Assembly (NCBI GenBank): GCA_902500125.1
Contig: GCA_902500125.1_4132.1
From: Escherichia coli
GTDB lineage: Bacteria > Pseudomonadota > Gammaproteobacteria > Enterobacterales > Enterobacteriaceae
Direction: 5' to 3' (one strand)
DNA length: 64,000 nucleotides
This document shows, in pieces, positions 1,910 to 18,086 of the stretch. A program made the translations under genes and the position numbers. Each line of letters begins with the position of its first letter. The first letter of the stretch is position 1. Below the pieces are notes generated by a model. It had not been told where the DNA came from. It ran no database searches and saw only the letters and a list, made by a program, of their open reading frames with translations.

Positions 1910-1987
1910 CAGTGAAAATATCTCTATAGTATTAAATACTTCTGTACATATATATAGTACAGAAGTATTTCTCGTTAGAGGTTTGTT

Positions 1988-2347
1988 ATGAAGAGTTATA
2001 TAAAATTAATAGCACTTGTGTGTGCATTATTTTCATGTTTTAGTTATGGTGCAGCAGCAGAAACATATTGTCGTAGTACTAAGGGAACGTGGCATGTATT
2101 GACTAACGACCCTAGAAATGGTAAAAATATAGTTGTTGATGGTGTGATTTATCGTTTTAAAGTAGCAAGTATTATCGGTAATAAAAAAATCTCGACTTAT
2201 AGAGATGATTCTGGTACATTAGCAAACGTAATATTAATTGTAGACCCAAGAACTGGTAATGGTGATATCTATATAGTAATTTACTTGGACTCATCGGTAC
2301 GCCGTGACCTAGATATAGATAAATTGAACTTACACTGTGAAATATAG
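1988..2347 (+). CDS. secreted/periplasmic small protein (N-terminal signal peptide)
   Basis: MKSYIKLIALVCALFSCFSYGAAAE signal-like N-terminus; RBS GAGGTTTGTTATG. Confidence 0.6.
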   Translation: MKSYIKLIALVCALFSCFSYGAAAETYCRSTKGTWHVLTNDPRNGKNIVVDGVIYRFKVASIIGNKKISTYRDDSGTLANVILIVDPRTGNGDIYIVIYLDSSVRRDLDIDKLNLHCEI

Positions 2348-2358
2348 GACTTAAAAAA

Positions 2359-2736
2359 ATGGTAAACACTATTTTACTTTTGTTGTTGAATATTCCAATT
2401 ATTCTGTCTTTTTTAATTTCTATTTTTATGGCAGGATATTGTTTAGTTGCAGTAATTCATTTCATTTTAACAAACAAATATGTCCTAATTTCTAAGCTTG
2501 ATTCTATTTTTGCTTGCGATTCGATTGCTTATAACTTGTGGTTAATTTGTTCTTGCATTATGGGAGTAACTTTCCTTCTGTATGTATTTGATGTCCTTGA
2601 CCAAAAGTTCGTATATATCAGTACTGGATTGGCTCTTTATCCTGCTACGTGGTACTTGATTTACGTTGGTGATATATGGTATAGTACTTATAAAGAATAT
2701 CAGTACAAGAAATCACTTAACGTTGGAGGAAAATAA
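2359..2736 (+). CDS. membrane protein (125 aa)
   Basis: ORF track; multiple hydrophobic helices. Confidence 0.55.
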   Translation: MVNTILLLLLNIPIILSFLISIFMAGYCLVAVIHFILTNKYVLISKLDSIFACDSIAYNLWLICSCIMGVTFLLYVFDVLDQKFVYISTGLALYPATWYLIYVGDIWYSTYKEYQYKKSLNVGGK

Positions 2737-2738
2737 TC

Positions 2739-3089
2739 ATGAAAATTATTTTATTTTTTGTATGTATGTTAATGTGTGGATTGTCATATGCTGAACCATT
2801 GGAAGGTTTAGTTTGTACAGATGGTAATATTAAACATATCTATCAAGGTGATAGTGACGATCGAGATATTGTATATATTGATGGACAATCATATACGTTT
2901 GTTAAAGAGCATACAGTAGGCGACATTAGCTTCACTGAGTTTTCTAACGACACAGACCCTAACTTCTTAGCGTTTATTGAAGTAGATGTATATGAAGATA
3001 GTAATGGTACACAATATGCTAAATTAGTTATGATGCGTCGTGGTGCTAAAGAAACTAGTTTTGGTGGCTTGTGTAAATATAAGGATTGA
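2739..3089 (+). CDS. secreted small protein (signal peptide)
   Basis: MKIILFFVCMLMCGLSYAEP signal-like start; RBS GGAGGAAAATAATCATG. Confidence 0.6.
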   Translation: MKIILFFVCMLMCGLSYAEPLEGLVCTDGNIKHIYQGDSDDRDIVYIDGQSYTFVKEHTVGDISFTEFSNDTDPNFLAFIEVDVYEDSNGTQYAKLVMMRRGAKETSFGGLCKYKD

Positions 3090-3093
3090 TATT

Positions 3094-3285
3094 ATGTTGA
3101 TTTATCAAAGTGATAATATTCGTGTTATGCAGCATCCCTACTTACAAATCTTTGATGTGCAGCAGTATATGGAAGGTGATGACCCAAGAACCTATGGTCG
3201 TAAGTATGATTACTTCACTGTAAAGCAGTGTAATAATATTAACGAAGTACGACAATTAGTTCAAGAACTTCAAAACAAAGGTTGA
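3094..3285 (+). CDS. hypothetical protein (63 aa)
   Basis: Internal Met of ORF 3040..3285 with RBS AAGGATTGATATTATG. Confidence 0.5.
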   Translation: MLIYQSDNIRVMQHPYLQIFDVQQYMEGDDPRTYGRKYDYFTVKQCNNINEVRQLVQELQNKG

Positions 3286-3305
3286 CTTCGGTCAGCCTTT
3301 TTTGT
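3277..3305 (+). terminator. rho-independent terminator, class T1 (GGTTGAC-TTCG-GTCAGCC + T-tract); also carries promoter-like TTGACT..TATAAT
   Basis: Hairpin with UUCG loop followed by TTTTTTG; same element repeated five times in 3-14 kb. Confidence 0.7.
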
Positions 3306-3339
3306 TATAATTCTCTTAATAAATTAGAGGATTTTAATT

Positions 3340-3780
3340 ATGTATGTATATCGTTTTGAACTTAAATTTAGTTACATTGAACCTAACTTAGATCCTGCAC
3401 GAACTGTAGGTCCGTTTGCACGGTATTCAACCAGATACAGTACTAAAAATGGATTTGACCGTTTGCTTATGACTACACCTTCTCAATTCCAACCTGAACC
3501 AACTGAGGATGGGATCTATTCAATCAAAAGTGGATGGGTATTTGGCTGTCAAAGTTTGAAAGATTTGTTCAGATTCTTCACTATGGACTTAGGTAAATTG
3601 CATCGTGCTGGGTTTGCTATATCTGTATATGAAGTTCCAGACCACCATGTAGACATTGGTCGTAATCAGGTTCAGTACTATTGCGGTAGTGCTAAATTAG
3701 TTCGTATCATGTCAGTTAAGGAAGCAAAGGATGAGTTCCGACAAAGTAAAAGAGAAACACATGAGGTAATATATGGATAA
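3340..3780 (+). CDS. hypothetical protein (146 aa)
   Basis: ORF track; RBS AGAGGATTTTAATTATG. Confidence 0.6.
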   Translation: MYVYRFELKFSYIEPNLDPARTVGPFARYSTRYSTKNGFDRLLMTTPSQFQPEPTEDGIYSIKSGWVFGCQSLKDLFRFFTMDLGKLHRAGFAISVYEVPDHHVDIGRNQVQYYCGSAKLVRIMSVKEAKDEFRQSKRETHEVIYG

Positions 3781-4117
3781 AACTCAAATAGAATTAAAGA
3801 AATTTGTTTCATTCTATCTTCCTGATGACCCACGTAATTCACAAAAAGATATTGAATATTATAATATCCTATCTAAACAGTTAATGAGAAAGTTTCAACA
3901 GTGTTTAACTATATTCAATACAGATGGAAGACGTAGATACCGAATCGTTTCAATGAATGATGAAAACGCAAATTTCTTTGATTACGATGTAGTTTTTAGA
4001 GCATATAATGATGATCGTATAAAATTAAATTATGATCAAATTATACTTGACCTGAATGTTATATGTGTTATAATCACTCACGTAGCCGAACTTAATGGTT
4101 TTAAAGAATGGTATTGA
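3773..4117 (+). CDS. hypothetical protein (114 aa)
   Basis: ORF track; overlaps the upstream stop (coupled). Confidence 0.55.
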   Translation: MDKTQIELKKFVSFYLPDDPRNSQKDIEYYNILSKQLMRKFQQCLTIFNTDGRRRYRIVSMNDENANFFDYDVVFRAYNDDRIKLNYDQIILDLNVICVIITHVAELNGFKEWY

Positions 4118-4131
4118 ATAGAGGATAACAT

Positions 4132-4398
4132 ATGAAGCTTAAATTACAATATAATGGATTTACTTTACGTAATGATACTGAATTTATTAATCGTTCTCCT
4201 GGTGCTGAACTGTTTTTACGAGAGATGAACATTCCTTTCATCATTACTACAGTGGGCGACCGTGAAGTTCTACAATATGCAGAGCATCCGATTATTGATG
4301 TTCCTTGGTACTCTGAGCATATGTACATGGATATGGCACGTCGCTACAACTGTAAGTTCGTAGTTGAAGGTGATAAAATTACAGTCGAATTTAAATAA
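4132..4398 (+). CDS. hypothetical protein (88 aa)
   Basis: ORF track; RBS AGAGGATAACATATG. Confidence 0.55.
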   Translation: MKLKLQYNGFTLRNDTEFINRSPGAELFLREMNIPFIITTVGDREVLQYAEHPIIDVPWYSEHMYMDMARRYNCKFVVEGDKITVEFK

Positions 4399-4409
4399 GG
4401 TAAATTAAA

Positions 4410-4703
4410 ATGATCAGTACTTCAGTTAATGAAAGCATCGTCGCTGACGTAGAAATGGTTAAAGAATGTGCAGATGAAACTCTTCGTGATATGTACATTA
4501 ATGATTTAATTACTGAATACGGTAGTCGTGGTGTACACGAATTTATTCGTTTAAGTGGAGAGTTGATGAAAAATCGAATTCGTATGAAGCTTAACGTACA
4601 TCCAAAAGCATGGGCATTTACATTAAAATACGCAGAAGATATTGTGAATTTGCGTCGAACTGAAGTATATGAACGTTTACACAATGGTATGTTAGATAAA
4701 TGA
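4410..4703 (+). CDS. hypothetical protein (97 aa)
   Basis: ORF track; RBS AAGGTAAATTAAAATG. Confidence 0.55.
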   Translation: MISTSVNESIVADVEMVKECADETLRDMYINDLITEYGSRGVHEFIRLSGELMKNRIRMKLNVHPKAWAFTLKYAEDIVNLRRTEVYERLHNGMLDK

Positions 4704-4713
4704 TTGTAAAATA

Positions 4714-4740
4714 GGAATTCTTAAATGAATTCCTTTTTGT
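4714..4740 (+). terminator. rho-independent terminator (AGGAATTC-TTAAAT-GAATTCCT + TTTTT)
   Basis: Perfect 8-bp stem followed by a T5 run. Confidence 0.65.
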
Positions 4741-4755
4741 TTATAAGGTATAGTA

Positions 4756-4977
4756 ATGAAATATATAGTACTTGTACTGATATTATTCAGTACTGTTGTA
4801 AGTGCTAAACAAAAAGAATATATTAAATGTATAAATTATGAAGAGAAATATGTTGAAACATATAAAAAAAGTATAATTAAAAACGTTTCGATTACTAACA
4901 GAGCAACAATCATTGTACTTAAAAATGGGTTAATTATGCTATATAAACCACACGTTAAATGTGAAATTATTAATTGA
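4756..4977 (+). CDS. secreted small protein (signal peptide)
   Basis: MKYIVLVLILFSTVVSA signal-like N-terminus. Confidence 0.55.
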   Translation: MKYIVLVLILFSTVVSAKQKEYIKCINYEEKYVETYKKSIIKNVSITNRATIIVLKNGLIMLYKPHVKCEIIN

Positions 4978-4984
4978 GGAAATT

Positions 4985-5557
4985 ATGAATCGTAAAGGTC
5001 GTTTTAAAGTATCAAAAAAGAACAAAAGTTCTAGGTTTAAACCTATTGTTTTAACAGTTAAATCTAACAAAGATTTAACTGCACTTAGTAAAAAGATAAT
5101 TTCATCTAAGATTGAAGTATCATACGTAAATTCATTAAAATATATGAATGTCAAACCACTGGACCAACTCATTTCACTTATATTTGAACGTAATGATTTT
5201 GAGATATCAGTAGATGATTATAGAGCCTATAATGCTGGTTTCATTAATGTTACTTGTAATAAAAAACTAACTGAGTTGGAAAATTTGTCATGTATAATAA
5301 ATCTAGATAAAGGTGTTGTGAAGTACCATTTTGTACATTTCACTAATATCAATAATGGAATGGGTGTACAATCCAGACCTATAGTGCCTACGTGTGATGT
5401 TACTAAATTAGCAAAGCTCAATGATGAAGAATATTTTCAAGAAAGCATTGTAACTGAGCATTTAGATGATATAATAGCTACTTACAAAGAATGCATATGG
5501 GTGTTGAATGCTATAAAACCTAAATTGTGTTTAATGAATATTGTTCGTGATTTATGA
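4985..5557 (+). CDS. hypothetical protein; distant member of the EEYFQxS[LI] family (array 3)
   Basis: Internal Met with RBS TTGAGGAAATTATG; contains LNDEEYFQESIV motif shared with the 59-63.7 kb paralogs. Confidence 0.55.
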   Translation: MNRKGRFKVSKKNKSSRFKPIVLTVKSNKDLTALSKKIISSKIEVSYVNSLKYMNVKPLDQLISLIFERNDFEISVDDYRAYNAGFINVTCNKKLTELENLSCIINLDKGVVKYHFVHFTNINNGMGVQSRPIVPTCDVTKLAKLNDEEYFQESIVTEHLDDIIATYKECIWVLNAIKPKLCLMNIVRDL

Positions 5558-5570
5558 ATGGGGAATCGTA

Positions 5571-6014
5571 ATGAGTTGGGTAAATGTTAATAGTATTGAA
5601 CTTAACGAACAAGATATTTTTGCATTTGTAAATTTAACTAATAACACAGTACTAAAAGGGCGTTTGTTCAGTGCGAGTGATGGATATAAATGGATCTCTT
5701 TGATGGATGATAGTGGTGTGATTTATAATGTAATGCAATTACCCCAATGGGTATATAGTAACACTGCCGACGATGTTCTTGCCGCAGTTATGCGTGAGTT
5801 TGAAAAACTCCCAGGTGGTGATATCAAAAACAAAGTTTTTAATGCAGAACGGAAAAATTATACAGCACAGCAGTTGGAATCCCTTGCCATTGCTGCTTAT
5901 CAAGCTGCTATTAAGAAGCCAGAGTGCGTTATTCTTAAGTATGTACCAGACTTAAAACTTACGTTGGAAGACATGGATGCATTCATTTTTACATCTGAAC
6001 TTGATCAGTACTAA
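5571..6014 (+). CDS. hypothetical protein (~147 aa)
   Basis: Internal Met of ORF 5541..6014 with RBS GGGGAATCGTAATG. Confidence 0.5.
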   Translation: MSWVNVNSIELNEQDIFAFVNLTNNTVLKGRLFSASDGYKWISLMDDSGVIYNVMQLPQWVYSNTADDVLAAVMREFEKLPGGDIKNKVFNAERKNYTAQQLESLAIAAYQAAIKKPECVILKYVPDLKLTLEDMDAFIFTSELDQY

Positions 6015-6129
6015 TTTAACTTTGGGACAACCATTCTTATTATGATATAATGTTTTATGTCATTCGATATAAATGACAACGGAACTATAAATATTATAGT
6101 AAAATTTATCTCTTATAGGAGTTATAAAA

Positions 6130-6513
6130 ATGGTTGGTAAATGGAATAAGAAAGATCCATCACATGATGTTGATATTTCTGGTCTAGACAATGCACATAA
6201 GCACAAGTATCTAGATTCACTAGGTCTTCTAAAACCAGACCAAAGTCTTGCACATGATCGTCCATCCCGTGAAAAAGCATTTAGCCTAGAATCACTAGGC
6301 CATGAGCTTAATCGTGTGTTTGAGGATCACCCAATCTATGTACGTGATATTATCGAGAAACTTAAAGTAACTCCTAAAGAGCACTTTAAAGCAACTGTAC
6401 ACTCTGCATTCCGTGCATTACATGAATCTCTAAAGAAAACTCACAATCTTCGTAAAATTCATGATGAAATCGTGAATGCAATCGAAAGTGAAAAACATAA
6501 GTTCAAGAAGTAA
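6130..6513 (+). CDS. hypothetical protein (127 aa); N-terminus paralogous to 7859..9118
   Basis: RBS TAGGAGTTATAAAAATG; shares a KxKYLDSLGLL motif with the 419-aa gene. Confidence 0.6.
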   Translation: MVGKWNKKDPSHDVDISGLDNAHKHKYLDSLGLLKPDQSLAHDRPSREKAFSLESLGHELNRVFEDHPIYVRDIIEKLKVTPKEHFKATVHSAFRALHESLKKTHNLRKIHDEIVNAIESEKHKFKK

Positions 6514-6518
6514 TAAAA

Positions 6519-6545
6519 ATGGTTGACTAAGGTCAGCCCTTTGTT
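6519..6545 (+). terminator. rho-independent terminator, class T1 variant
   Basis: GGTTGAC-TAAG-GTCAGCC hairpin followed by CTTTGTTG. Confidence 0.55.
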
Positions 6546-6581
6546 GTATCATAACTTCTCAATATAACTGAGGTATCATAT

Positions 6582-6695
6582 ATGCAAGGTTTGAAATTTG
6601 TAGTTGCTGCCCTAATCGCTGCTGTTGTAGTGGGTACAGTATGTTATTCAATTGACACCTATATCAATACACCTAGTGTTGAACAAACCAAATAA
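6582..6695 (+). CDS. small hydrophobic peptide (37 aa)
   Basis: RBS ACTGAGGTATCATATATG; MQGLKFVVAALIAAVVVGTVCYSIDTYINTPSVEQTK; below the ORF-track cutoff. Confidence 0.3.
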   Translation: MQGLKFVVAALIAAVVVGTVCYSIDTYINTPSVEQTK

Positions 6696-6703
6696 GGGAT
6701 ATC

Positions 6704-6967
6704 ATGGCTGAAACATTATCACTATATGCGTTAGTACTGTTATTTGTCGGATTTCTTCCCGCACTCATTACAGCCATTCGTGTTGTTAAACATGAAGCTG
6801 CATTGATTGTATGTAGTATTGGGTCGAACATTCTATTGTATTTCTTTTTGACAAATACTATTGTACTGTTTGCTTTCTTTATCATGATTCTGTGGGTACT
6901 TGTAATTCTCGGATTCTTCATTTGGTCATTGGTTGATCCTAAGAAAAAATCAGGAGAAGTGAAATGA
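6704..6967 (+). CDS. membrane protein (87 aa)
   Basis: ORF track; RBS AAGGGATATCATG; hydrophobic. Confidence 0.55.
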   Translation: MAETLSLYALVLLFVGFLPALITAIRVVKHEAALIVCSIGSNILLYFFLTNTIVLFAFFIMILWVLVILGFFIWSLVDPKKKSGEVK

Positions 6968-7260
6968 AATTAATTATAGCAATGATAATGTGTTTGGCTT
7001 TCCCTGTACTGGCTACTCCTAATCTGGACTGCACACTGTTGCGTTCAGATGGTGACACACTTGAAATCAACACATATGAACTCTTTGGTCCAAGTGTAGT
7101 GGAGAATGAAACCACCTACAATTTCAAAGCTATTGACTTTGAAGGTAATGTTCCAGTACTAACTACAATGACTATTGACAAAACTACTTTACTCGGACGA
7201 ATCACCACACAACGCGGAGAAAGTAAAACATTCACAGCGAAAGCTGACTGTAACTACTAA
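6964..7260 (+). CDS. secreted small protein (signal peptide)
   Basis: MKLIIAMIMCLAFPVLATP signal-like start; ATGA overlap with the upstream gene. Confidence 0.6.
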   Translation: MKLIIAMIMCLAFPVLATPNLDCTLLRSDGDTLEINTYELFGPSVVENETTYNFKAIDFEGNVPVLTTMTIDKTTLLGRITTQRGESKTFTAKADCNY

Positions 7261-9152: not shown

Positions 9153-9188
9153 GTTATGATGTTGGTATTAACTACAGAGGATAAAGTA

Positions 9189-9830
9189 ATGACTAAGCAA
9201 GACATATTCAAAACTTTAATTGACATTTTGCGTCCATCAAAAACTCGTTGTGCGATGGAGTTTGATATTCCTTATGCTGAACGCGTAATCTTTCCACAAG
9301 TTAAAGCTGCTGGACTTACTTTGCTTGGAATGGGGATGTACTCTGTAGTAGTTGAACATAAAAACTATCCTGGACGTGCATTTAAAGTAACCACTTCACG
9401 CTGGGATGGTTTTCGTGCTTATGCAAAGTACTGCATTGAAAACGCAGGAACCAAGTTTCTTCCAGTGATCTACAGTGCCAACGAACAAGGAAACTTTGGA
9501 TGGTATGAGATGGACAAGTACTATCCTATAATTAAACAAAAAAATAATTATGATGACTTTGTTAGTACTAAAATTGGAGATTTATATTCTTATGCACATG
9601 CTGGTCAGTACGCTACTTCAGTGAATGATATGCGTGGAAATTCTGAAGAGATTGCTATTGCAACGGTCGCTGCTAACATCATGAAAGAGTTTCACGGGCG
9701 TTTTGTACCAGACATTCATTCAAGTAATGTGATGATGGATAAAGATGGCAATGTATTCATTACTGATCCTCTTTCGTGTGATGTACGTAGAGAAATACCA
9801 GTTACTGAAGAAGATCCAGTTTTTTATTGA
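9189..9830 (+). CDS. protein-kinase-like protein (atypical, ~213 aa)
   Basis: RBS GAGGATAAAGTAATG; G-loop-like LGMGMYSVV, AFKV (VAIK-like), catalytic-loop-like DIHSSNVMMDKDGNVFITD. Confidence 0.55.
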   Translation: MTKQDIFKTLIDILRPSKTRCAMEFDIPYAERVIFPQVKAAGLTLLGMGMYSVVVEHKNYPGRAFKVTTSRWDGFRAYAKYCIENAGTKFLPVIYSANEQGNFGWYEMDKYYPIIKQKNNYDDFVSTKIGDLYSYAHAGQYATSVNDMRGNSEEIAIATVAANIMKEFHGRFVPDIHSSNVMMDKDGNVFITDPLSCDVRREIPVTEEDPVFY

Positions 9831-9891
9831 CAGAACTGATGTTCTGGTGTATTCTTAATAAACCATAAAAATTGCGGTAAAGGATAAAATC

Positions 9892-10173
9892 ATGCGTTCA
9901 TTTGAAAACTTAATAGGTAAGCATCTTTTATCTGAAATTGATGCAGACGTTAAAGAATTATCCAAATCAAAAAGTTACATTCATTTGGATGAACTGTTTA
10001 TTAAGTACGGTGAGATTGGTTTTAAGTCATTATTTGTTTTTACTATGAAAGTACATAGTTTAAAGTACTTCGATTTGAGTTCTAAAGATGGTGAACCGAA
10101 TCTATATTACATGTATTACCTTAAGAACAAAGATGAAGCTAATACATTACTCTCTGAATATATATTGGGGTAA
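9892..10173 (+). CDS. hypothetical protein (93 aa)
   Basis: ORF track; RBS AAAGGATAAAATCATG. Confidence 0.55.
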   Translation: MRSFENLIGKHLLSEIDADVKELSKSKSYIHLDELFIKYGEIGFKSLFVFTMKVHSLKYFDLSSKDGEPNLYYMYYLKNKDEANTLLSEYILG

Positions 10174-10175
10174 AA

Positions 10176-10514
10176 ATGGAACAATATTTTGAATTAATAA
10201 ACAAAGTATCATTTTATGTAGTATCTTTGGTTTGGGTGTATTATATGTTTTGCTATATTATTGCATTCTTCCGATATACTACTTTATATGAACGTATCTA
10301 CTATGATGCCCCAATTTCATTCTTGATGTTTTGTGCATGTACGTGGGGAATATTAGAAGTACTGATATGTGGGTATAGTACTGATGAATTAAATCTGGTA
10401 TCGGTGTTGACTGGGTTTTCATTTGTTGTTATGATAGCTGCCGTTCCAGTATGGTTGTTCTTTGGACTAGTTCATCGCATTGATATATGGCGTTCTAATA
10501 TCCCTGAAAAGTAA
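10176..10514 (+). CDS. membrane protein, family M paralog (4 TM, C-terminal R-x-N-[ILM]-P-E)
   Basis: Hydrophobic; C-terminal WRSNIPEK tail shared with nine other paralogs. Confidence 0.6.
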   Translation: MEQYFELINKVSFYVVSLVWVYYMFCYIIAFFRYTTLYERIYYDAPISFLMFCACTWGILEVLICGYSTDELNLVSVLTGFSFVVMIAAVPVWLFFGLVHRIDIWRSNIPEK

Positions 10515-10517
10515 GGA

Positions 10518-10865
10518 TTGGAAATGATTTATTACACTAACATGTTTGCCTATGCTGTTGCTTGCATTTACATTGTTTACTTCTTATTCGGTGGAGTACT
10601 GTGCTTCTTTAAGTACAAAACGTTGTTCAACCGAATGTACCCAAATCATCCAATTGTAGTTGTACTTTTGATTCTTTCAGTTTCTCAAATAATCGTTGAA
10701 ACTACAATGGGTATCAGTAGTGTACATTATAGTTTTGGCACTATAGTAATTATTACTATGCTTATTGCATACATTTTAGTACTTGGATATGGTATCTTTG
10801 GTAATATTGGTATGAAAATGTATCATCGAATTAAAACATTACGTGATAATCTACCGGAGCGTTGA
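10518..10865 (+). CDS. membrane protein, family M paralog
   Basis: C-terminal LRDNLPER; RBS AAGGATTGGAAATG. Confidence 0.6.
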   Translation: MEMIYYTNMFAYAVACIYIVYFLFGGVLCFFKYKTLFNRMYPNHPIVVVLLILSVSQIIVETTMGISSVHYSFGTIVIITMLIAYILVLGYGIFGNIGMKMYHRIKTLRDNLPER

Positions 10866-10866
10866 T

Positions 10867-11211
10867 ATGTATAATTTGAACCTAATCTCATATATTATAA
10901 CAACACTGTTTACATTCTATGCCTTTGTTGGTATAATCCTACTGTACTTTAAATTTTATAAAGTGTTTAACCGTTTCTATCCTTCAATGGAGAATGAGTT
11001 TTTCTTTGTGTTGTACGTAGGTTACACATTAATGGCTACATGTTTCACTGTAGCCGATGGTGTCATCGGCATTAAAACTGATTCCCCAAATGGTAGTACG
11101 CTGGTTGCATTTATTCTTACTGGATTCCTTGCAACTTATATTGCCTTCATTACAACATGGTCAGTGGTTGAATTTCTCTTGCGACTACGAAAGAATATGC
11201 CGAATCGATAG
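10867..11211 (+). CDS. membrane protein, family M paralog
   Basis: Internal Met after the upstream stop; C-terminal LRKNMPNR. Confidence 0.55.
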   Translation: MYNLNLISYIITTLFTFYAFVGIILLYFKFYKVFNRFYPSMENEFFFVLYVGYTLMATCFTVADGVIGIKTDSPNGSTLVAFILTGFLATYIAFITTWSVVEFLLRLRKNMPNR

Positions 11212-11220
11212 GAGACATAT

Positions 11221-11475
11221 ATGTTTGCGTTGCGTAATAAAAACACTAAAGAATTATTATGTATTGATACCGTATGGGATTGTGCGGGATCAACTACAGT
11301 TCTTGAAGAAGGAACTGGATATTGCGTGTTTGTTGTTCATGATAGGAATGAACTCGAATTATTACTTGCTGAGTTCAATGCTGGTGGTAATCCTAACAGT
11401 ACTGAATACCCTGAGATTATCAATCCAGCACCACCAGGCTCTTATGAAATTCTACAACTGTGGGAGTTGAAGTAA
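11221..11475 (+). CDS. hypothetical protein (84 aa)
   Basis: RBS ATAGGAGACATATATG. Confidence 0.55.
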   Translation: MFALRNKNTKELLCIDTVWDCAGSTTVLEEGTGYCVFVVHDRNELELLLAEFNAGGNPNSTEYPEIINPAPPGSYEILQLWELK

Positions 11476-11855
11476 TGCGTCAAATGCACAAAGTAACCGA
11501 GCTAAACAAGCGTCTGGTTAAACAATCAATGTTCGAGGATAAAGAGTCTTATTATAACTTTAAACGTGCTGTAGAGGCTGCTATCCACATTCAGAAGCTT
11601 AAAGAACGTGGTTGTATTATTCTGGAAAATGGGTCGGAAGTTGTAACGGATGACTTTAGTGTAGCGTTTGATGTTTCACCTGACGGGACGCTATCAATGC
11701 CCCGCTTAGGAACTGGAAACATGACTGTTTGGGTTGGCTTCACTATGGGGAATGTACCTGGTACTGTGTACGTAGATGATGCGGAATTGAAAGACAGTTT
11801 CAAAAACTTATCTTATCTTGAACCACAATACGCACATGAAATGAATTTATTTTGA
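11475..11855 (+). CDS. hypothetical protein (~126 aa)
   Basis: Internal Met with RBS GGGAGTTGAAGTAATG overlapping the upstream stop. Confidence 0.5.
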   Translation: MRQMHKVTELNKRLVKQSMFEDKESYYNFKRAVEAAIHIQKLKERGCIILENGSEVVTDDFSVAFDVSPDGTLSMPRLGTGNMTVWVGFTMGNVPGTVYVDDAELKDSFKNLSYLEPQYAHEMNLF

Positions 11856-11860
11856 GTTGA

Positions 11861-11890
11861 CAAACACATTCAGTACTGTATAATGCTTAT
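11861..11890 (+). promoter_or_regulatory. sigma70-like promoter (TTGACA-N16-TGTATAAT)
   Basis: TTGACAAACACATTCAGTACTGTATAATG upstream of gene 11932. Confidence 0.6.
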
Positions 11891-11931
11891 CAAGGGGATG
11901 AACTTCTCATCCCTACAATCGAGGAACTACC

Positions 11932-12486
11932 ATGATTACTTTTAAGAAAACTGCTAACCACATCCATGAAATCTACATTAACGGTCACAAAGCTGGCCTT
12001 CTTCGTTTACTCGCCCATCATCCTGATGTTACCGTATCTGATAATGAACCTAAAGATTGGCGTGTATTTTTCTTTGGAAAGTACAGTGATTTTCAAGTAT
12101 CAAACCTGAAGAACATTCGTTCAGTATGCACGTTAACTGAAATTAAAGAAAAGTTAGAAAAAGCATTGAAAACTAATCCAGATGGTGTTCTTCCACCTGA
12201 TAACTTTGTAGAGAAAGGTTATGCATTAGCTCATTTCAAAGATGGTACTATTCAATCTATCAGTACTGAATATGAATATCAATGGACTGAGTACTTCACT
12301 TATGGATCGCGTAATACATTGATGGCTTCACGTAGTAAATTGGAAGAAGTACTGACTCGTATGAATGAACGCGAACGTCAATTTTATGACAAACCAGAAA
12401 TGTGGAGTTCAACTTACATTGACCGTATTGACTATGTTATTATGACTCCAATCTTTGACACTGCTTACTATGATTCTTTGAAATAA
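11932..12486 (+). CDS. hypothetical protein (184 aa)
   Basis: ORF track; RBS GAGGAACTACCATG. Confidence 0.65.
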   Translation: MITFKKTANHIHEIYINGHKAGLLRLLAHHPDVTVSDNEPKDWRVFFFGKYSDFQVSNLKNIRSVCTLTEIKEKLEKALKTNPDGVLPPDNFVEKGYALAHFKDGTIQSISTEYEYQWTEYFTYGSRNTLMASRSKLEEVLTRMNERERQFYDKPEMWSSTYIDRIDYVIMTPIFDTAYYDSLK

Positions 12487-12497
12487 GGATAACTTAT

Positions 12498-12674
12498 ATG
12501 AAACTACGTACTCGTAATCGACTGATGGATGCACTGTACCATGAACAGCTTTCACTGAATGAAGTGAAGCGACAGTTAATGTACACATATCTGTTACCCG
12601 ATCGCATTGCAAAACAACGTGCTAAAGAATTGCTGAAAGAAGCAATCGAGTACTGGGAATCTGATTCGTACTAA
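12498..12674 (+). CDS. small hypothetical protein (58 aa)
   Basis: RBS TAAGGATAACTTATATG; below the ORF-track cutoff. Confidence 0.4.
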   Translation: MKLRTRNRLMDALYHEQLSLNEVKRQLMYTYLLPDRIAKQRAKELLKEAIEYWESDSY

Positions 12675-12702
12675 TTGTCACGTTAATTAAGTGAGGCGAT
12701 AA

Positions 12703-12954
12703 ATGAAAATTTTATTAGTTCTAATACTACTAATTGTTTTACCATTTACGTTAGTATCCCCTGAACTTGCATGGAATGTGTTTGTGTACTTAGTATGTAC
12801 TATTGTAGTAAATGGTATCTTGTTCTTAGTTCTATTCATAAATGGAATAGGACACGGTGGAGGATGGACCAGTACTGCTGATATTGTACATAAAACCACT
12901 ATGTCTTTATTTGTAATGTGGAATTTATTCTGGACTTGGTTTGTGTTCTTCTAA
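12703..12954 (+). CDS. membrane protein (83 aa)
   Basis: RBS AGTGAGGCGATAAATG; hydrophobic. Confidence 0.55.
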   Translation: MKILLVLILLIVLPFTLVSPELAWNVFVYLVCTIVVNGILFLVLFINGIGHGGGWTSTADIVHKTTMSLFVMWNLFWTWFVFF

Positions 12955-12962
12955 TTAAAAAT

Positions 12963-13334
12963 ATGAATATAGATTTGAAAGGTGCAACCCGAACTGTCAT
13001 ACTCATTGGGGAATATGCTATCAAGATTCCAACCTTTAAAAGTTGGAAGCTATTCTTAACAGGGATGATAGCTAACCTCAATGAACGTTCGTGGATGCAG
13101 TACTCCAATCGTAGTGATAGTAGTATCTGTCCTACGTTGTGGTCATCATGTACTGGACTAGTAACTGTACAGAAACGTTGTAAGCCAGTGCAACATAGGG
13201 GTTTATTTTGGGTGGAGTTGTGTGCTTTAGCATTGAATTCAGAGTTAAGTACTGACTTCTTCTATTCAGATGCGAAGCCAGAAAACTTTGGGTATCTGTG
13301 TGGTAAGTTGGTTAAACTTGATTATGGAGATTAA
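12963..13334 (+). CDS. mini protein-kinase-like protein (~123 aa)
   Basis: ILIGEYAIKIP (G-loop/AIK-like), YSDAKPENFGYLCGKLVKLDYGD (D-x-K-P-E-N catalytic loop plus DYG). Start could instead be 12918. Confidence 0.5.
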   Translation: MNIDLKGATRTVILIGEYAIKIPTFKSWKLFLTGMIANLNERSWMQYSNRSDSSICPTLWSSCTGLVTVQKRCKPVQHRGLFWVELCALALNSELSTDFFYSDAKPENFGYLCGKLVKLDYGD

Positions 13335-13335
13335 T

Positions 13336-13605
13336 ATGTACGCATTGTATAATAAAGAAAAGAAACGATTTGCTAAGGTTGAAATTTCGATTGATACATT
13401 TGACATGTTGGAGTACTGTATTGTAACGGACTTATATGCTAACTTGTATTACGTTCTTGATGACGTATCAGTACTGCAACGATTGCTTGAGAATTCCAAA
13501 AGTCAATGCCAGGACATCCATGATGGTTCATCTTATGAAACACCTGAGTGTCCCCACGGGCAACTCGATGGGTATGAGATTGTTAAGTTGGGAATTGTTG
13601 AGTAA
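13336..13605 (+). CDS. hypothetical protein (~89 aa)
   Basis: Internal Met with RBS GGAGATTAATATG immediately after the upstream stop. Confidence 0.5.
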   Translation: MYALYNKEKKRFAKVEISIDTFDMLEYCIVTDLYANLYYVLDDVSVLQRLLENSKSQCQDIHDGSSYETPECPHGQLDGYEIVKLGIVE

Positions 13606-13610
13606 AAGGT

Positions 13611-13640
13611 ATTGACACCGTACTCATTTAACTGTATTAT
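13611..13640 (+). promoter_or_regulatory. sigma70-like promoter (TTGACA-N17-TATTAT)
   Basis: TTGACACCGTACTCATTTAACTGTATTATG upstream of gene 13671. Confidence 0.5.
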
Positions 13641-13670
13641 GTATGTACACCAACTAATGAGGAATCGGAA

Positions 13671-14030
13671 ATGGCATCTTTATCTGAAATCACTGAACTG
13701 AATCCACTGGTAATTAGTACTGTTCAACGCACCAAGACGTTTTACTTCCGTCCTGCTGATGGATGGAAACGTGGAATGAATGGTGACTATCGAGTACTGG
13801 AAGATTCGCTCATCGAGCGTATCAACTCTGAACTACAGAAGTATGAAGGTGTTAAAGTTGTCCGTTCAACTTCTCGTTATTTTGAGTACTACATTGAGTC
13901 TTCAACTGTAAATGAAAACTCATCATTCTCGGTGGATAACACTGATATTCTTCGCAATGCAGTTGGTTTGCTATGCAACATTGCAGAAGAAATGGGATTA
14001 ACTATCACCACAATGAGTGAGTTAGAATAG
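13671..14030 (+). CDS. hypothetical protein (119 aa)
   Basis: ORF track; RBS GAGGAATCGGAAATG. Confidence 0.6.
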   Translation: MASLSEITELNPLVISTVQRTKTFYFRPADGWKRGMNGDYRVLEDSLIERINSELQKYEGVKVVRSTSRYFEYYIESSTVNENSSFSVDNTDILRNAVGLLCNIAEEMGLTITTMSELE

Positions 14031-14040
14031 AATAAAAAAA

Positions 14041-14066
14041 GGGTTGACTTAGGTCGGCCCTTTTGC
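14041..14066 (+). terminator. rho-independent terminator (T1/T2-like) followed by TTGCTATTATATC
   Basis: GGGTTGAC-TTAG-GTCGGCCC followed by TTTTG. Confidence 0.6.
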
Positions 14067-14100
14067 TATTATATCTATATCGAAACGAAGGAGACAAACC

Positions 14101-14874
14101 ATGACCCGTCAAGAGAAAGCAATCCAAATCGAAAAAAACTTCAATAGCATGATGGCTGCACTGGAATGCCTTCTTGATACACAAGCTAACTCTATCAACT
14201 CTCTGATCGTATCAGGTAAAGGTGGTGTTGGTAAAACTTATAACGTTGACCAACGGTTGCAGAAAGCTGATGATAACTTTGAAATCGACTACAAGAAAAT
14301 CAGTGGTAAAGTAACTACTTTGGGTCTGTACGAAGCACTGTATCGTTCACGTCATGCCGCATCAGTACTGTTACTTGATGACGTTGATATCTTCTCTGAC
14401 GAGACTAATATTGATTTGCTTAAAGCTGTGTTGGATACGTCAGAGAAGCGTGTAGTTTCTTACGCGACTTCTGCTAAGTACCTGGAACAGCAGGGTATCC
14501 CTAAGCAGTTTGAATTCCGTGGTAAAGTAATCTTTCTGACTAACAAAAACCTGTCACAGATTGCTAAAGGTAAAAGCAGCTTAGCACCACACATCGATGC
14601 ACTGATCACTCGTAGTATCTTTGTTGACCTGCAACTGTTCACCAACGAAGAAGTGATGATTCACATTGAGAACATCATGAACAAAACTAACATCCTTGAA
14701 AACAATGGTGTTAACAAAAATGGTTGTAAAGCAATCCTGAATTGGATGCTGAACAACGAAGAACGTTTGCGTAGTCCATCACTGCGTATGCCAGTACTGA
14801 TCGCTGGTTTGTATAATAAATTCCCATACGATTGGGAATCAATGGCAGAGAATATGTTCCTTGAGAAAATTTAA
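14101..14874 (+). CDS. P-loop ATPase with deviant Walker A (ParA/MinD/Mrp-like)
   Basis: RBS AAGGAGACAAACCATG; VSGKGGVGKT Walker A and VLLLDDVD Walker B-like; 257 aa. Confidence 0.5.
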   Translation: MTRQEKAIQIEKNFNSMMAALECLLDTQANSINSLIVSGKGGVGKTYNVDQRLQKADDNFEIDYKKISGKVTTLGLYEALYRSRHAASVLLLDDVDIFSDETNIDLLKAVLDTSEKRVVSYATSAKYLEQQGIPKQFEFRGKVIFLTNKNLSQIAKGKSSLAPHIDALITRSIFVDLQLFTNEEVMIHIENIMNKTNILENNGVNKNGCKAILNWMLNNEERLRSPSLRMPVLIAGLYNKFPYDWESMAENMFLEKI

Positions 14875-14941
14875 TTACATGTATTGACAGTACTACACTA
14901 TGGTAGTACTATAACTTAATATTCACCACCGGAGATACGAT

Positions 14942-15280
14942 ATGCTTGAGTTTTTTAATTCAGATACAATGATTAGTATTACTTTGATTTATCTGTTTGG
15001 TTTTTTCTTTTATCATGCACTGGTTGTAGTACTGTGGTATTTTAAAAAGAAAATTGTTTTTAAACTGTATCCAGTAAGGAATTCATCACTAGTTCTTTAC
15101 ACACTAGTTCAAGGTTTGTTTGCAATTGTTGGTCTTATGGCACACTTAATTTATTGTGCCAATCCTCACTTGAACTCAATCTCACAATATATTGTATTCT
15201 TTGGGTTGTTCATTTGGTTAGTTGTATACTTAATCCATCTCATTATTCATGGTAGAGATAAAATTCGCGGAGACTTCTAA
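14942..15280 (+). CDS. membrane protein, family M paralog
   Basis: RBS CCGGAGATACGATATG; 3-4 TM helices. Confidence 0.55.
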   Translation: MLEFFNSDTMISITLIYLFGFFFYHALVVVLWYFKKKIVFKLYPVRNSSLVLYTLVQGLFAIVGLMAHLIYCANPHLNSISQYIVFFGLFIWLVVYLIHLIIHGRDKIRGDF

Positions 15281-15627
15281 TGTTTGAAGCTTATCTTGAG
15301 TTTTTAAGGAGTAGTTCAGTTGCACATTCACTTGCAGGGATTATTCTAACAACTTATGTATCATTTTGGGTAGTTATGTTTCTAGGATGGTATTTTAAAC
15401 GACAATTCTATAAACGTAATGGTGAAGATTTTATGAATTCTGCCATTAATCAATCGTTGTTTGCATCAACATTGATTGCATGTATTGTAGCAACACTCAC
15501 AGGAAAGGTACTACCAGCTTTTTCCGCAGTTTACGGCACACTTGGGATGATATGTTTAACTTTTATATTGACCATTAAAATTTGTTGTGTTATGATTGAA
15601 CTTCGAAATAAGATACCGGAGGAATGA
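15280..15627 (+). CDS. membrane protein, family M paralog
   Basis: C-terminal LRNKIPEE; ATGA-type coupling. Confidence 0.6.
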   Translation: MFEAYLEFLRSSSVAHSLAGIILTTYVSFWVVMFLGWYFKRQFYKRNGEDFMNSAINQSLFASTLIACIVATLTGKVLPAFSAVYGTLGMICLTFILTIKICCVMIELRNKIPEE

Positions 15628-15962
15628 TGGAGTACTTTATTGATTTACTGCCGTGGTATATGAAAGTTAGTACCATGTACTATATTATTAGTGCTGGATT
15701 CTACTTTCTGATGTGGTTCTTTAAACGACCAATTTCAGTATTCATCGCTGATAACATGCTGCAATTAAAATTACACGCATGGTTTGGTATGGCGATGATT
15801 ATGCCTATTATTCACTACTCAATGATTAGTAGAGGTTTCCGTTCTAATGGTGAACCAATTGTATTAGTATTCTATTGGGGTTCAACTATTGCATATGTAA
15901 GTTTGTTGTTGTTCCCAGTCGTTCATAAGTTACGTGCTAAAGTTCCTGATGCGAGGTACTAA
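15624..15962 (+). CDS. membrane protein, family M paralog
   Basis: C-terminal LRAKVPDARY; overlaps the upstream stop. Confidence 0.6.
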   Translation: MMEYFIDLLPWYMKVSTMYYIISAGFYFLMWFFKRPISVFIADNMLQLKLHAWFGMAMIMPIIHYSMISRGFRSNGEPIVLVFYWGSTIAYVSLLLFPVVHKLRAKVPDARY

Positions 15963-16276
15963 TGGATATAGTAACATTGATTTACACGTTGTATTCATTC
16001 TATTTCATTATGTGTTGGGTTGGATTTTTATTTGTACTCAAGATGTTTGATTATGTTGAAAAACAGATAAAAGAATTTTGTATTCCTTTTATCGGTTCAA
16101 CCATTATTAGTGTTTCTTGTGTGTATTTTTTGGTTTTTGATCCACCAGATAACACTGCAATGATTGACTTGATGTTACTACCAACAACTGTTACTTTTTT
16201 ATGTAGTCTGATGCCGCCGATTAGCCGTGGACTAACAGAATTTAGACGCAATCAAAAGCGTAAACGAGGGATGTAA
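15962..16276 (+). CDS. membrane protein, family M paralog
   Basis: Hydrophobic; C-terminal FRRNQKRKRGM; coupled. Confidence 0.55.
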   Translation: MDIVTLIYTLYSFYFIMCWVGFLFVLKMFDYVEKQIKEFCIPFIGSTIISVSCVYFLVFDPPDNTAMIDLMLLPTTVTFLCSLMPPISRGLTEFRRNQKRKRGM

Positions 16277-16644
16277 TGGAAATTGCTCTTATTATCTTAA
16301 CTGCTATGCTGTTTATTAGTACTGTGGTTATAATTGGTAAATTCTTTTGTGTATCATTTTTAGAAACGGTATACGATGAAATTGCTGATGATTATGAATT
16401 ACAAGCCGGATTTTTCATTACGTATTGGCTTAGTTTATTTTGTCTAGTCATTGCTTGGATTTTACATATCTTTAAATGGGGTATGGTAGACGGTGATCCT
16501 ATTATGGCAATTATTGTTCTAGTGTTTGGTATCCTTGGTGGTGCAGTGCATAATCTAATGGTTATCTGGCAAACTGTTCAATATGTTTTGGTTCCCTATT
16601 TCGAAAAGATGCACAGTACAATTAAAAAACGTAAACGAGGTTAG
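16276..16644 (+). CDS. membrane protein, family M paralog
   Basis: Hydrophobic; C-terminal KKRKRG; coupled. Confidence 0.6.
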   Translation: MEIALIILTAMLFISTVVIIGKFFCVSFLETVYDEIADDYELQAGFFITYWLSLFCLVIAWILHIFKWGMVDGDPIMAIIVLVFGILGGAVHNLMVIWQTVQYVLVPYFEKMHSTIKKRKRG

Positions 16645-16645
16645 T

Positions 16646-17008
16646 ATGAACGGGATAGAATTATCTTTCGTTGGTCAATTACTAGTAATGGCGTATACAT
16701 TTATCTTCTCACTGAATGCATTCGTGTGCATTGGGAAGTACTTCCATAAGCGACCATTATCAAATATATATGATGTAATCCAAAAGAGATATAGTCCAGC
16801 ATATACTGTGTTGGGTACAGTATTCAATTTTGGTTTTATTGTATTAATAATTGGACTGTTCACATCCTCTTTGAATACAATAACCTTCGGTCTTATGATA
16901 TGTTCATTGGTATTAGCCGTAATTATATGTTGTTTAGTACTGCACCTTGTGGTACTATTGTATATAAAGATCTCTGAAATCCACCAACGTTTGGGTATGA
17001 GGAAATAA
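16646..17008 (+). CDS. membrane protein, family M paralog
   Basis: Internal Met with RBS ACGAGGTTAGTATG directly after the upstream stop. Confidence 0.55.
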   Translation: MNGIELSFVGQLLVMAYTFIFSLNAFVCIGKYFHKRPLSNIYDVIQKRYSPAYTVLGTVFNFGFIVLIIGLFTSSLNTITFGLMICSLVLAVIICCLVLHLVVLLYIKISEIHQRLGMRK

Positions 17009-17009
17009 T

Positions 17010-17381
17010 ATGAGTTACCGTGAGATATTTTCCATTATTTCAATTATTATGTTCAGTACTGGAACACTGGTATGGTTATTATACTTCTTCTGTATTAATC
17101 CAGTGTATAATATGTTATGTAATATTAAATCAAGTGCCGGATATATCACTTTTATGGTCTTTATGGGATATTATTGTCTAAGCATTTTAGGTGTTGTTTT
17201 GGTTGTTATATTTGATGTGGGACCAAATAGTGATGGTATGGAAATACATGAATTAATAACCATGTTTGGATGTATGATACCAACAGCACTACTGTTTGTA
17301 GCTACTGGTAGTGGATTGATAAAATTATATAATTATTTAAAATCCATTCATAATTCCATTCATAATAAGCGTATGTCATAA
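17010..17381 (+). CDS. membrane protein, family M paralog
   Basis: RBS GAGGAAATAATATG; hydrophobic. Confidence 0.6.
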   Translation: MSYREIFSIISIIMFSTGTLVWLLYFFCINPVYNMLCNIKSSAGYITFMVFMGYYCLSILGVVLVVIFDVGPNSDGMEIHELITMFGCMIPTALLFVATGSGLIKLYNYLKSIHNSIHNKRMS

Positions 17382-17423
17382 TAAAAAATCCAGTACTATT
17401 AAGTACTGGATGTATAAGGAGTT

Positions 17424-18086
17424 ATGATGAAATCAAAATTAGGTTTGTTTTATAAAAACTATTTTGTTAAACAACGTAAATTTATAAAAAAATATTTCTC
17501 TGGCGAGAAGTCTAGTCCTATAATCTTTAAAAGACCAAGTTATAATACTTACTTAGCTGGTGCTAAACAGTCTAAGAAATTTATTACTCTTTTACATAAA
17601 AACAAAATTAAAGCTTCTTATGTTGAAACGAGAAGAAACTCATCAATAACTCCTGGTGATTTTATTGAGTACGGATGTTTCAATATTAAGTACAATGATA
17701 ATACATACTTTATGGATATTGATTGTAATACATCCAATCTTTTTAACATTGTAGTAAATCCATTAAAACAATATAATGTTTATGGTGATTCTATTATCAA
17801 ATTAATCAAAAACAAAGATAGCTTTGATTTTGAAATAAATGTTTTAGATGATAATTTTGACGAAGTACCAGTAAACCCTGAAATCTGTGATATTTTAAAC
17901 AGTTTAAAAGGTAGTACCTACACTATATCATCTGATTTAATGTTTCAGTACTCATTAATCCATAAAGATATTGAAAAGTATATTGAATGCTCCAAAATTT
18001 TGAATTATCTTTACGATGAATTTAAAAAGAGTTCTAAAATAACCGCATACACTTTGTACAATATTCCTAAAATGGTGAATCTTTGA
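17424..18086 (+). CDS. hypothetical protein (220 aa)
   Basis: RBS TAAGGAGTTATGATG; converges on the minus-strand array, with a 20-nt 3' overlap. Confidence 0.55.
   Translation: MMKSKLGLFYKNYFVKQRKFIKKYFSGEKSSPIIFKRPSYNTYLAGAKQSKKFITLLHKNKIKASYVETRRNSSITPGDFIEYGCFNIKYNDNTYFMDIDCNTSNLFNIVVNPLKQYNVYGDSIIKLIKNKDSFDFEINVLDDNFDEVPVNPEICDILNSLKGSTYTISSDLMFQYSLIHKDIEKYIECSKILNYLYDEFKKSSKITAYTLYNIPKMVNL

Follow-up and report, generated by a model that had tools for sequence, protein, structure and literature searches.

The subject of this report is a set of ten small genes, m1 to m10, in a 64,000-nucleotide (nt) stretch of DNA (the window) from an assembly deposited as Escherichia coli. Each encodes a protein of 104–123 amino acids (aa) with three predicted transmembrane (TM) segments, and the ten lie in two clusters, m1–m3 and m4–m10, on either side of an ATPase gene. 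At 96–98% identity, the region that contains them (10000–17500) matched ~350-kb jumbo phages of Escherichia that belong to the 121Q/PBECO4 group (genus Asteriusvirus); in all, it matched 44 records of phages of Escherichia, Salmonella, Klebsiella, and Erwinia. By this identity, we assign the window to a 121Q/PBECO4-like (Asteriusvirus) jumbo coliphage. A first-pass annotation had placed ten open reading frames (ORFs) for such proteins here, and all were present at those positions on the plus strand, with the starts of m2, m3, and m9 corrected from orthologs and deposited annotation. A GGAG/GAGG-type ribosome-binding site lies 5–9 nt 5′ of the start in all 10 genes, and the ratio of nonsynonymous to synonymous substitution (dN/dS) of m4–m10, calculated against phage TH47, was 0.10–0.42. 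The Shine-Dalgarno sites, together with these dN/dS values for m4–m10, indicate genuine genes under purifying selection.

m1, 10176..10514, plus strand: 112 aa, three TM segments, tail WRSNIPEK, group I; phrog_19285; helices also in an AlphaFold2 model.
m2, 10524..10865, plus strand: 113 aa, three TM segments, tail LRDNLPER, group I; ortholog P0032; start moved from TTG 10518 to 10524 on the basis of the CRJP21 gp_545 start.
m3, 10867..11211, plus strand: 114 aa, three TM segments, tail LRKNMPNR, group I; ortholog P0035; start moved from GTG 10843 to 10867 on the basis of the CRJP21 gp_546 start.
ATPase gene, 14101..14874, plus strand: AAA+ ATPase, 257 aa, T4 NrdC.10 homolog, as judged from phrog_1250, a structural model, and invariant residues.
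m4, 14942..15280, plus strand: 112 aa, three TM segments, tail GRDKIRGDF, group III; phrog_19454; ortholog RaK2 ORF311 (97%).
m5, 15280..15627, plus strand: 115 aa, three TM segments, tail LRNKIPEE, group III; phrog_19046; orthologs RaK2 ORF309/310 (95%, hhalign); start in 1-nt overlap with the m4 stop.
m6, 15624..15962, plus strand: 112 aa, three TM segments, tail LRAKVPDARY, group III; phrog_27396; 4-nt overlap with m5.
m7, 15962..16276, plus strand: 104 aa, three TM segments, tail FRRNQKRKRGM, orphan subfamily; phrog_33258; ortholog RaK2 ORF313 (96.7%).
m8, 16276..16644, plus strand: 122 aa, three TM segments, GKFFCV after TM1, tail MHSTIKKRKRG, group II; phrog_26405.
m9, 16646..17008, plus strand: 120 aa, three TM segments, GKYFHKRP after TM1, tail IHQRLGMRK, group II; start moved from ATG 16583 to 16646, with ortholog P0011 beginning MNGIEL.
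m10, 17010..17381, plus strand: 123 aa, three TM segments, YFFCINPVY after TM1, tail IHNSIHNKRMS, group II; phrog_27618.

Neighboring genes within m4–m10 overlap by 1–4 nt or are separated by 1-nt gaps. The m1–m3 cluster is 2.9 kb from the ATPase gene, with eight unrelated genes between them. In the deposited annotation of the related phage CRJP21 (OQ708376.1, 3176–13545), m1 is called 'endonuclease V', the ATPase and m4–m6 are called 'regulator of chromosome condensation' or 'DNA condensation protein', and m9 is missed, an ORF on the opposite strand being called instead; these labels look like annotation-transfer errors.

Hydropathy and charge gave a single topology for all of the paralogs. 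The Kyte-Doolittle profile of every one of the 10 proteins had exactly three peaks, at roughly residues 3–36, 41–78, and 66–108; the first-pass annotation had allowed for three or four hydrophobic helices, and a fourth was never seen. An AlphaFold model of m1 placed helices at residues 2–33, 45–65, and 74–108, plus a short loop helix, at modest confidence (predicted local distance difference test score, pLDDT, 72; predicted template-modeling score, pTM, 0.39). In the eight proteins tabulated, loop 1 and the C-terminal tail together contained 58 lysines and arginines, as against 4 in the N-terminal tail and loop 2, a skew that predicts an N-out/C-in arrangement throughout. The proteins are thus predicted to reside in the inner membrane with an acidic N-terminus in the periplasm and a basic C-tail in the cytoplasm, and we are highly confident of this description as a whole, that is, of the genes, the topology, and the array. 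Groups I and III have a common acidic-aromatic N-terminus, M-x-E-[FY]-F. Among orthologs, the best-conserved segments were the C-tail and the cytoplasmic end of TM1 with loop 1 (for example, FYFLMWFFKR, invariant in m6; GKFFCV in m8; and YFC-x-x-PVY in m10), and the most variable were TM3 and the periplasmic loop. Conserved tails took the form hydrophobic-[R/H]-x-[K/N]-hydrophobic-P-[D/E] or hydrophobic-H-x-x-hydrophobic-x-x-K-R.

The ten had been described as one family with similar tails. Pairwise BLAST supported only the m1–m2 and m2–m3 relationships. We assembled orthologs from public proteins and five related phages into one profile per paralog and compared the profiles using hhalign, with reversed alignments as composition-matched controls; the highest reversed-control score was 19.9, and five unrelated small ORFs of the window with multiple TM segments by Kyte-Doolittle prediction, used as natural negative controls, scored 15.5 or less. 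By hhalign probability, m1, m2, and m3 form group I (m1–m2 97.6%, m1–m3 87.5%, m2–m3 89.5%), m8, m9, and m10 form group II (m8–m10 95.4%, m8–m9 94%, and m9–m10 just 23.5%), and m4, m5, and m6 form a weaker group III (54% or less). When the profiles of each group were merged, groups I and III aligned over their full length (99 columns) at 93.9% and E = 1.6e-7, with reversed controls near 15. Groups I and II aligned at 63.5%, over TM3 and the tail only, and m7 aligned with group II over 14 tail columns, with no full-length link. Cross-group matches of profile hidden Markov models (HMMs) were also found in other phages (A4 m5 to m9, 18.3 bits; TH47 m4 and m10 to m1, 13–14 bits), and m1 aligned with the group II protein P0039 at 34% over 78 columns in hhalign. 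The ten-member family therefore holds for m1–m3 with m4–m6, is moderately supported for m8–m10, and has no full-length support for m7: in these profile comparisons m1–m6 are one family, with m8–m10 and m7 as its probable distant branches. The paralogs would have arisen through old tandem duplications.

Similarity of the tails was statistically real in five of the proteins. The motif R-x-[NK]-[ILVM]-P-[DEN] occurred in 5 of the 293 stop-to-stop ORFs of the window, namely m1, m2, m3, m5, and m6, each time at the C-terminus, where 0.18 occurrences were expected. The m4 tail is a degenerate version of this motif, and m7–m10 have a different basic tail, [RH]...K/R-K/R. In RaK2 ORF309/310 and in the m7 orthologs, one and the same tail position is occupied by either arginine or histidine, which links the tails of all groups. 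A looser motif, [RH]xx[ILVMQ] near the C-terminus, matched 30 of the 293 ORFs and was discarded as non-discriminating.

The family is confined to one lineage of phages. When 1.84 billion representative proteins were searched exhaustively with a HMMER profile, 24 clusters matched; their lengths were all 89–127 aa, and none lay outside the family. A word-indexed search of 5.8 billion proteins gave 29 matches to the family alignment and 14 to the group II alignment, all of 99–141 aa, and those with names or long contigs all belonged to the same jumbo-phage group (~350-kb phage contigs). In tblastn, two divergent members had matches in 37 and 45 phage records, every one an Escherichia, Salmonella, or Klebsiella jumbo phage, and an IMG/VR scan with the m6 alignment found 121Q and RaK2 only. 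Nine of the 10 proteins matched PHROG clusters (E = 1e-51 to 1e-70, with a weak match of 2e-4 for m3), m9 had no match, and the clusters concerned (19285, 19454, 19046, 27396, 33258, 26405, and 27618) are all listed as 'unknown function'. The same sequences are thus already catalogued as hypothetical phage proteins, but as seven unrelated clusters, with none for m9 and with neither the paralogy nor the ordered array recorded. The family is unmentioned in the RaK2, CBB, and fEgEco12 genome papers and in a comparative review of jumbo phages. The array is a lineage-restricted, previously undescribed set of paralogous small phage membrane proteins. Approximately 10% of jumbo-phage genes are paralogs (RaK2 paper, PMC3622015), and such an array, worth defining, is of little surprise in a phage of this kind.

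Gene order was compared in five related phages from Asteriusvirus and Alcyoneusvirus, with Klebsiella and Salmonella phages among the relatives that keep the order. The series m4-m5-m6-m7-m8-m9-m10 followed a NrdC.10-type ATPase gene in CRJP21, TH47, A4, Turkey5, and Klebsiella phage RaK2, either directly or with one small ORF between (A4_227, RaK2 ORF308), and every paralog from m4 to m10 was kept in all five. Departures from this order were duplications (m4′ in CRJP21, m7′ in Turkey5, m5′ in RaK2) and minor swaps in RaK2. Genes of the m1–m3 type were present in three copies in the window and CRJP21 and in one copy each in the fetched parts of A4 and Turkey5, and the 7 kb upstream of the RaK2 ATPase gene contained none; m1–m3 form a satellite cluster whose copy number varies. 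Sequence divergence was uneven across the locus. The Turkey5 ATPase was 95% identical to that of the window and its m4–m10 proteins just 31–51% identical; in A4, a neighboring gene was 98% identical and m4–m10 just 31–67%. The ATPase gene is itself mosaic, with two deeply diverged alleles (95% versus 60% identity, the latter in TH47 and A4) in otherwise similar phages.

The following expression signals were identified in and around the two clusters.

14884..14912, plus strand: sigma-70-type promoter of the m4–m10 operon, TTGACA-17-TACTAT, in the 67-nt gap before m4 and followed by a GGAGA ribosome-binding site.
9827..9855, plus strand: sigma-70-type promoter-like site, TTGACA-17-TATTCT, intergenic, its spacer containing a small inverted repeat; a consensus match only, at 10 of 12 positions.
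14037..14072, plus strand: hairpin and promoter cassette, AAAAGGGTTGACTTAGGTCGGCCCTTTT then TATTAT, immediately 5′ of the ATPase gene; a copy of a repeated element.
3277, 6518, 7280, 9126, 14039, 42461, 45849, 48856, and 51609, plus strand: copies of this cassette, by pattern match.
17388..17411, no strand assigned: hairpin with a 10-base-pair stem at the end of the array; T-run on the minus strand only, and no canonical plus-strand terminator.

The −35 and −10 hexamers of the promoter before m4 were kept in TH47, CRJP21, and Turkey5 (as TACAAT in Turkey5), and the interior of the spacer varied. An inverted repeat, GTACTAC...GTAGTAC, fills the space between the hexamers; its arms were kept in four phages as its interior changed, and it may be an operator or a hairpin at the 5′ end of the RNA. 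By these signals and their spacing, m4–m10 are a tightly packed predicted operon behind its own conserved sigma-70-type promoter. The site at 9827..9855 precedes a 93-aa ORF (9892–10173) that runs directly into m1. The cassette before the ATPase gene follows the pattern AAAAGG(G)TTGACTTnGGTCnGCC(C)TTTT, and a TAT(T/G)AT box lies ~17 nt after its TTGACT; the −35 element is inside a terminator-like stem. The cassette matched 10 times in the window versus 1.4 expected, and copies also occurred in the A4, Turkey5, TH47, and RaK2 loci. The T4-type late-promoter octamer TATAAATA was found once in the 64 kb (both strands searched; 6086–6093, plus strand), where 13.5 ± 3.4 were expected, and nowhere near either membrane-gene cluster. 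This strong avoidance suggests that the octamer is a functional signal in this phage. Together with the absence of the octamer near the clusters and the kinase gene listed next, the consensus promoter matches suggest that the array is transcribed early by the host polymerase, within a host-takeover region. The gene just upstream of m1–m3 is consistent with such a region:

9156–9830, plus strand: T7 gp0.7-like serine/threonine protein kinase, 224 aa (phrog_15752, E = 2.5e-97).

The ATPase had been read as ParA/MinD-like from the string GKGGVGKT. The string is present, but fold, motif, and HMM comparison all spoke against this reading. The protein matched phrog_1250 at E = 2.2e-100 over profile positions 77–326 of 327, and tblastn aligned 96% of it with NrdC.10 of T4, T6, and T2 at 40–41% identity. 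Its Pfam CbiA/ParA match covered 12 residues (35–46) at E = 0.42. In the P-loop, GKGGVGKT of the window corresponds to GAPG[VI]GK[TS] in TH47, RaK2, and XaC1 and to GAAGIGKT in T6; only Gly39 (near-invariant), Gly42, Gly44, and Lys45 were conserved in 25 homologs. The signature lysine of ParA/MinD is absent from these homologs, so the likeness is confined to KGGVGKT in the allele of the window, where the GKGG lysine is a lineage-specific substitution. An AlphaFold model (pLDDT 92, pTM 0.86) has an α/β core and a helical C-terminal domain, which is the AAA+ fold with its helical lid rather than a SIMIBI fold. All 50 of the top 50 Foldseek hits in the PDB were AAA+ proteins (CbbQ, RuvB, DnaA/Hda, dynein AAA, RFC, ClpX), with no ParA/MinD among them; CbbQ 5c3c matched at E = 6e-6 with a template-modeling score of 0.56–0.60, and 117 hits had E ≤ 1e-3. 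Lys45, Asp93/Asp94, Asn148, Arg171, and Arg229 were invariant in the 25 homologs and fit Walker A, Walker B, sensor 1, the arginine finger, and sensor 2, with the roles of Arg171 and Arg229 assigned by position. Pfam AAA-type families matched below their cut-offs only, and phmmer and profile searches of the PDB gave hits at the level of the P-loop only. Because the protein belongs to a different P-loop class, AAA+, the ParA/MinD assignment falls. The T4 protein has the same AAA+ fold and the same invariant Walker A/B, sensor 1, arginine-finger, and sensor 2 residues, but carries ~75 additional N-terminal residues, and the window has GKGG in place of GAPG; the literature searched gave no function for NrdC.10.

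Other features of the window surround the array. G+C content is 30–41% across the window, and 7.8–18 kb is a plus-strand block of small genes, mostly without annotation. One gene between the two clusters had been called a mini-kinase:

12918–13334, plus strand: 138-aa protein, phrog_4301 (unknown function).

Kinase-like motifs in this protein (AIKIP, DAKPENFG, KLDYGD) were seen by eye only, and it had no Pfam, NCBIfam, or PDB sequence match, which neither confirms nor refutes the kinase label. The interval in which it lies (11211–14101) is an insertion hotspot in the loci of relatives (CRJP21, our locus L001, and loci L003, L008, and L009), with inserts that include denV, HNH-type and other homing-endonuclease-like genes, and a Cys-rich repeat protein of 500–565 aa. 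Directly after the array, a cluster of RCC1-like repeat-protein paralogs of ~400 aa each occupies 18562–24000 (minus strand); at the 5′ ends and in the upstream regions they are almost identical, with cross-matches between copies and between phages, and Xanthomonas phage XaC1 has the same RCC1-like cluster directly 3′ of its NrdC.10 gene. Small multi-TM ORFs are also present at 1283–1525, 1583–1909, 2359–2736, and 6704–6967 (plus strand), with another at 12703–12954; considered as candidate members of the m family, all five were rejected as unrelated by comparison. Directly 3′ of each of three of those in 1283–6967 is an ORF of ~98–119 aa with an N-terminal signal peptide (1988–2347, 2739–3089, 6964–7260) and cysteines near both ends, and a similar 73-aa ORF lies at 4756–4977. 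These form repeated pairs of a membrane protein and a secreted protein, and two of the secreted members are weakly alike (E = 8e-5).

Searches for function gave little. For the ten proteins, Pfam, PHROGs, NCBIfam, and PADLOC returned sub-threshold hydrophobic noise or PHROGs of unknown function only, with no match to known exclusion proteins of the T4 Imm/Sp type, and the m1 model matched nothing in BFVD or the PDB below E = 1.6. We favor a mechanism in which the m proteins would be made early from host-RNA-polymerase promoters, would insert into the host inner membrane, and would act there as a set, plausibly as a hetero-oligomer, most likely in early takeover or protection of the infected envelope, for example by excluding superinfecting phages or neutralizing membrane-acting host defenses. 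Retention of all of m4–m10, conservation of their order apart from RaK2, and their tight packing suggest that the proteins work as a set. The conserved aromatic and basic stretch following TM1 and the conserved C-tail are both cytoplasmic, so the working surface is probably cytoplasmic, and an early-type promoter combined with deep allelic divergence suggests a role at an interface of conflict. We advance the mechanism as a whole tentatively, extend the same tentative credence to the idea that the proteins act as a set, and are a little more doubtful of an envelope-protection role exercised from the cytoplasmic face. Superinfection exclusion or membrane takeover would be a reasonable guess. 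T4 Imm and Sp are small inner-membrane proteins that are expressed before the late genes and protect the envelope of the infected cell. The m proteins resemble them in size class and predicted early expression but form a ten-member, three-pass set, whereas each of the two T4 proteins comes from a single gene and has one or two membrane segments.

Several observations weigh against this mechanism or the family on which it builds. Divergence of the array may be mere regional mosaicism, since the ATPase alleles also diverge (60% versus 95%), and strict retention of every paralog fits a complex and argues against a simple arms-race family. The expression timing rests on consensus promoter matches, and promoter-like sites were not enriched in the region (59 versus 54.6 in shuffled sequence). 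Membrane proteins generally have aromatic and basic residues at the cytoplasmic interface, and the conservation seen here may reflect structure and not a binding surface; tight packing is common in phages and is no proof of stoichiometric assembly. The merged profiles of groups III and II scored 29.4, which is not above the reversed control of 25.5, and m8–m10 and m7 are tied to m1–m6 moderately at most. Finally, we found no homolog of known function, fold match, or paper for the family.

How the ten proteins relate to one another, and whether they act together, can be read in other ways. They might comprise two or three unrelated sets (m1–m6; m8–m10; m7), placed together in a stretch with many small membrane-protein genes, whose likeness in size, topology, and basic tail is convergent and which have no common function. 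The near-background III–II comparison, the confinement of the I–II alignment to TM3 and the tail, the 14-column link of m7, and the presence in the same window of other, unrelated small multi-TM ORFs (1283–2736, 6704–6967, 12703–12954) all point in this direction, but cross-subfamily matches recur in independent phages (A4 and TH47, as well as m1 with P0039), unrelated multi-TM ORFs of the same phage score no higher than 15.5, arginine and histidine alternate at one tail position across groups, and the proteins have near-identical lengths and the same helix spacing and are contiguous in one operon; we consider separate origins unlikely. Each paralog might instead inhibit a different host inner-membrane protein with no complex among them, the targets being, for example, a transporter through which competing phages bring in their DNA, part of the division or secretion apparatus, or a defense effector in the membrane. 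That each paralog is its own ortholog line with its own diagnostic motifs, diverges strongly between phage lineages, and is occasionally duplicated in one lineage, and that the copy number of m1–m3 varies, would be expected of such inhibitors. The absence of presence/absence variation for m4–m10 in five phages, their fixed order and packing, and the location of the most conserved segments in the cytoplasm rather than in the bilayer or periplasm would not, and independent inhibitors seem to us improbable. At the opposite extreme, m4–m10 could be subunits of one hetero-oligomeric inner-membrane complex, such as a channel, scaffold, or docking platform with a cytoplasmic working face. We also think this unlikely; if true, the complex would be a dedicated viral membrane machine without a known counterpart in other phages.

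Two further readings assign the proteins to known kinds of machinery, and we give each very little credence. The array could be a membrane module coupled to the adjacent AAA+ ATPase, which would assemble, remodel, or extract the m proteins or be tethered to the membrane by them. The first-pass annotation had likewise proposed a membrane-associated module, of which the membrane proteins stand; nothing found here supports an ATPase-centered localization function. Coupling would explain why the array lies downstream of a NrdC.10 homolog in the window, CRJP21, TH47, A4, Turkey5, and RaK2, and the ATPases of these jumbo phages all lack the first ~75 aa of the T-even proteins. However, the ATPase is not of the ParA/MinD type; NrdC.10 homologs occur in 1,310 phage records, compared to 37 and 45 for the two family members searched; the two loci checked outside the family-bearing group, in T6 and XaC1, have the ATPase with no membrane gene of the family beside it; a conserved promoter separates the ATPase gene from m4; the alleles have been exchanged independently, as in Turkey5; and m1–m3 lie 2.9 kb away behind unrelated genes. 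Because the ATPase is widespread and occurs in T6 and XaC1 without the array, which has its own promoter, adjacency is best explained by descent within Asteriusvirus and Alcyoneusvirus. The m proteins could also be holin- or antiholin-like, that is, pore formers resembling class I holins or regulators of permeabilization and lysis timing. Class I holins such as lambda S105 and P22 gp13 are ~90–125 aa long, cross the membrane with three helices in the N-out/C-in orientation, and end in a short, basic C-tail on the cytoplasmic side. The m proteins match this architecture in size (~105–125 aa), helix number, topology, and a short, highly basic tail, but the resemblance is one of architecture only: no holin family matched in Pfam (E ≤ 1) or PHROGs (E ≤ 0.01), and the lone BFVD match labeled 'Holin' has a meaningless E of 8.2. 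Moreover, ten copies in fixed order do not resemble any lysis cassette; the promoter of the operon is sigma-70-type and early-type, with no late promoter of the T4 type; the neighbors examined included neither an endolysin gene nor a spanin gene; and the published Rak2-like endolysin homolog of 121Q is gp532, far from gp211–232.

Phage-therapy and biocontrol work draws on jumbo phages of the Rak2/121Q group, and function is assigned to under half of their genes. Here, seven scattered 'unknown' clusters and one protein without a PHROG become one defined, ordered set of three-pass membrane proteins in a predicted operon with its own promoter, found in phages of three host genera, with gene starts corrected and topology predicted. 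A misleading ParA/MinD lead is removed, and the ATPase is placed in the widespread, uncharacterized NrdC.10 family of AAA+ proteins. If the m proteins are exclusion or anti-defense factors, then their allelic diversity among near-identical phages would matter for the design of phage cocktails. The defined set gives a handle on how a giant phage reshapes the inner membrane of its host.

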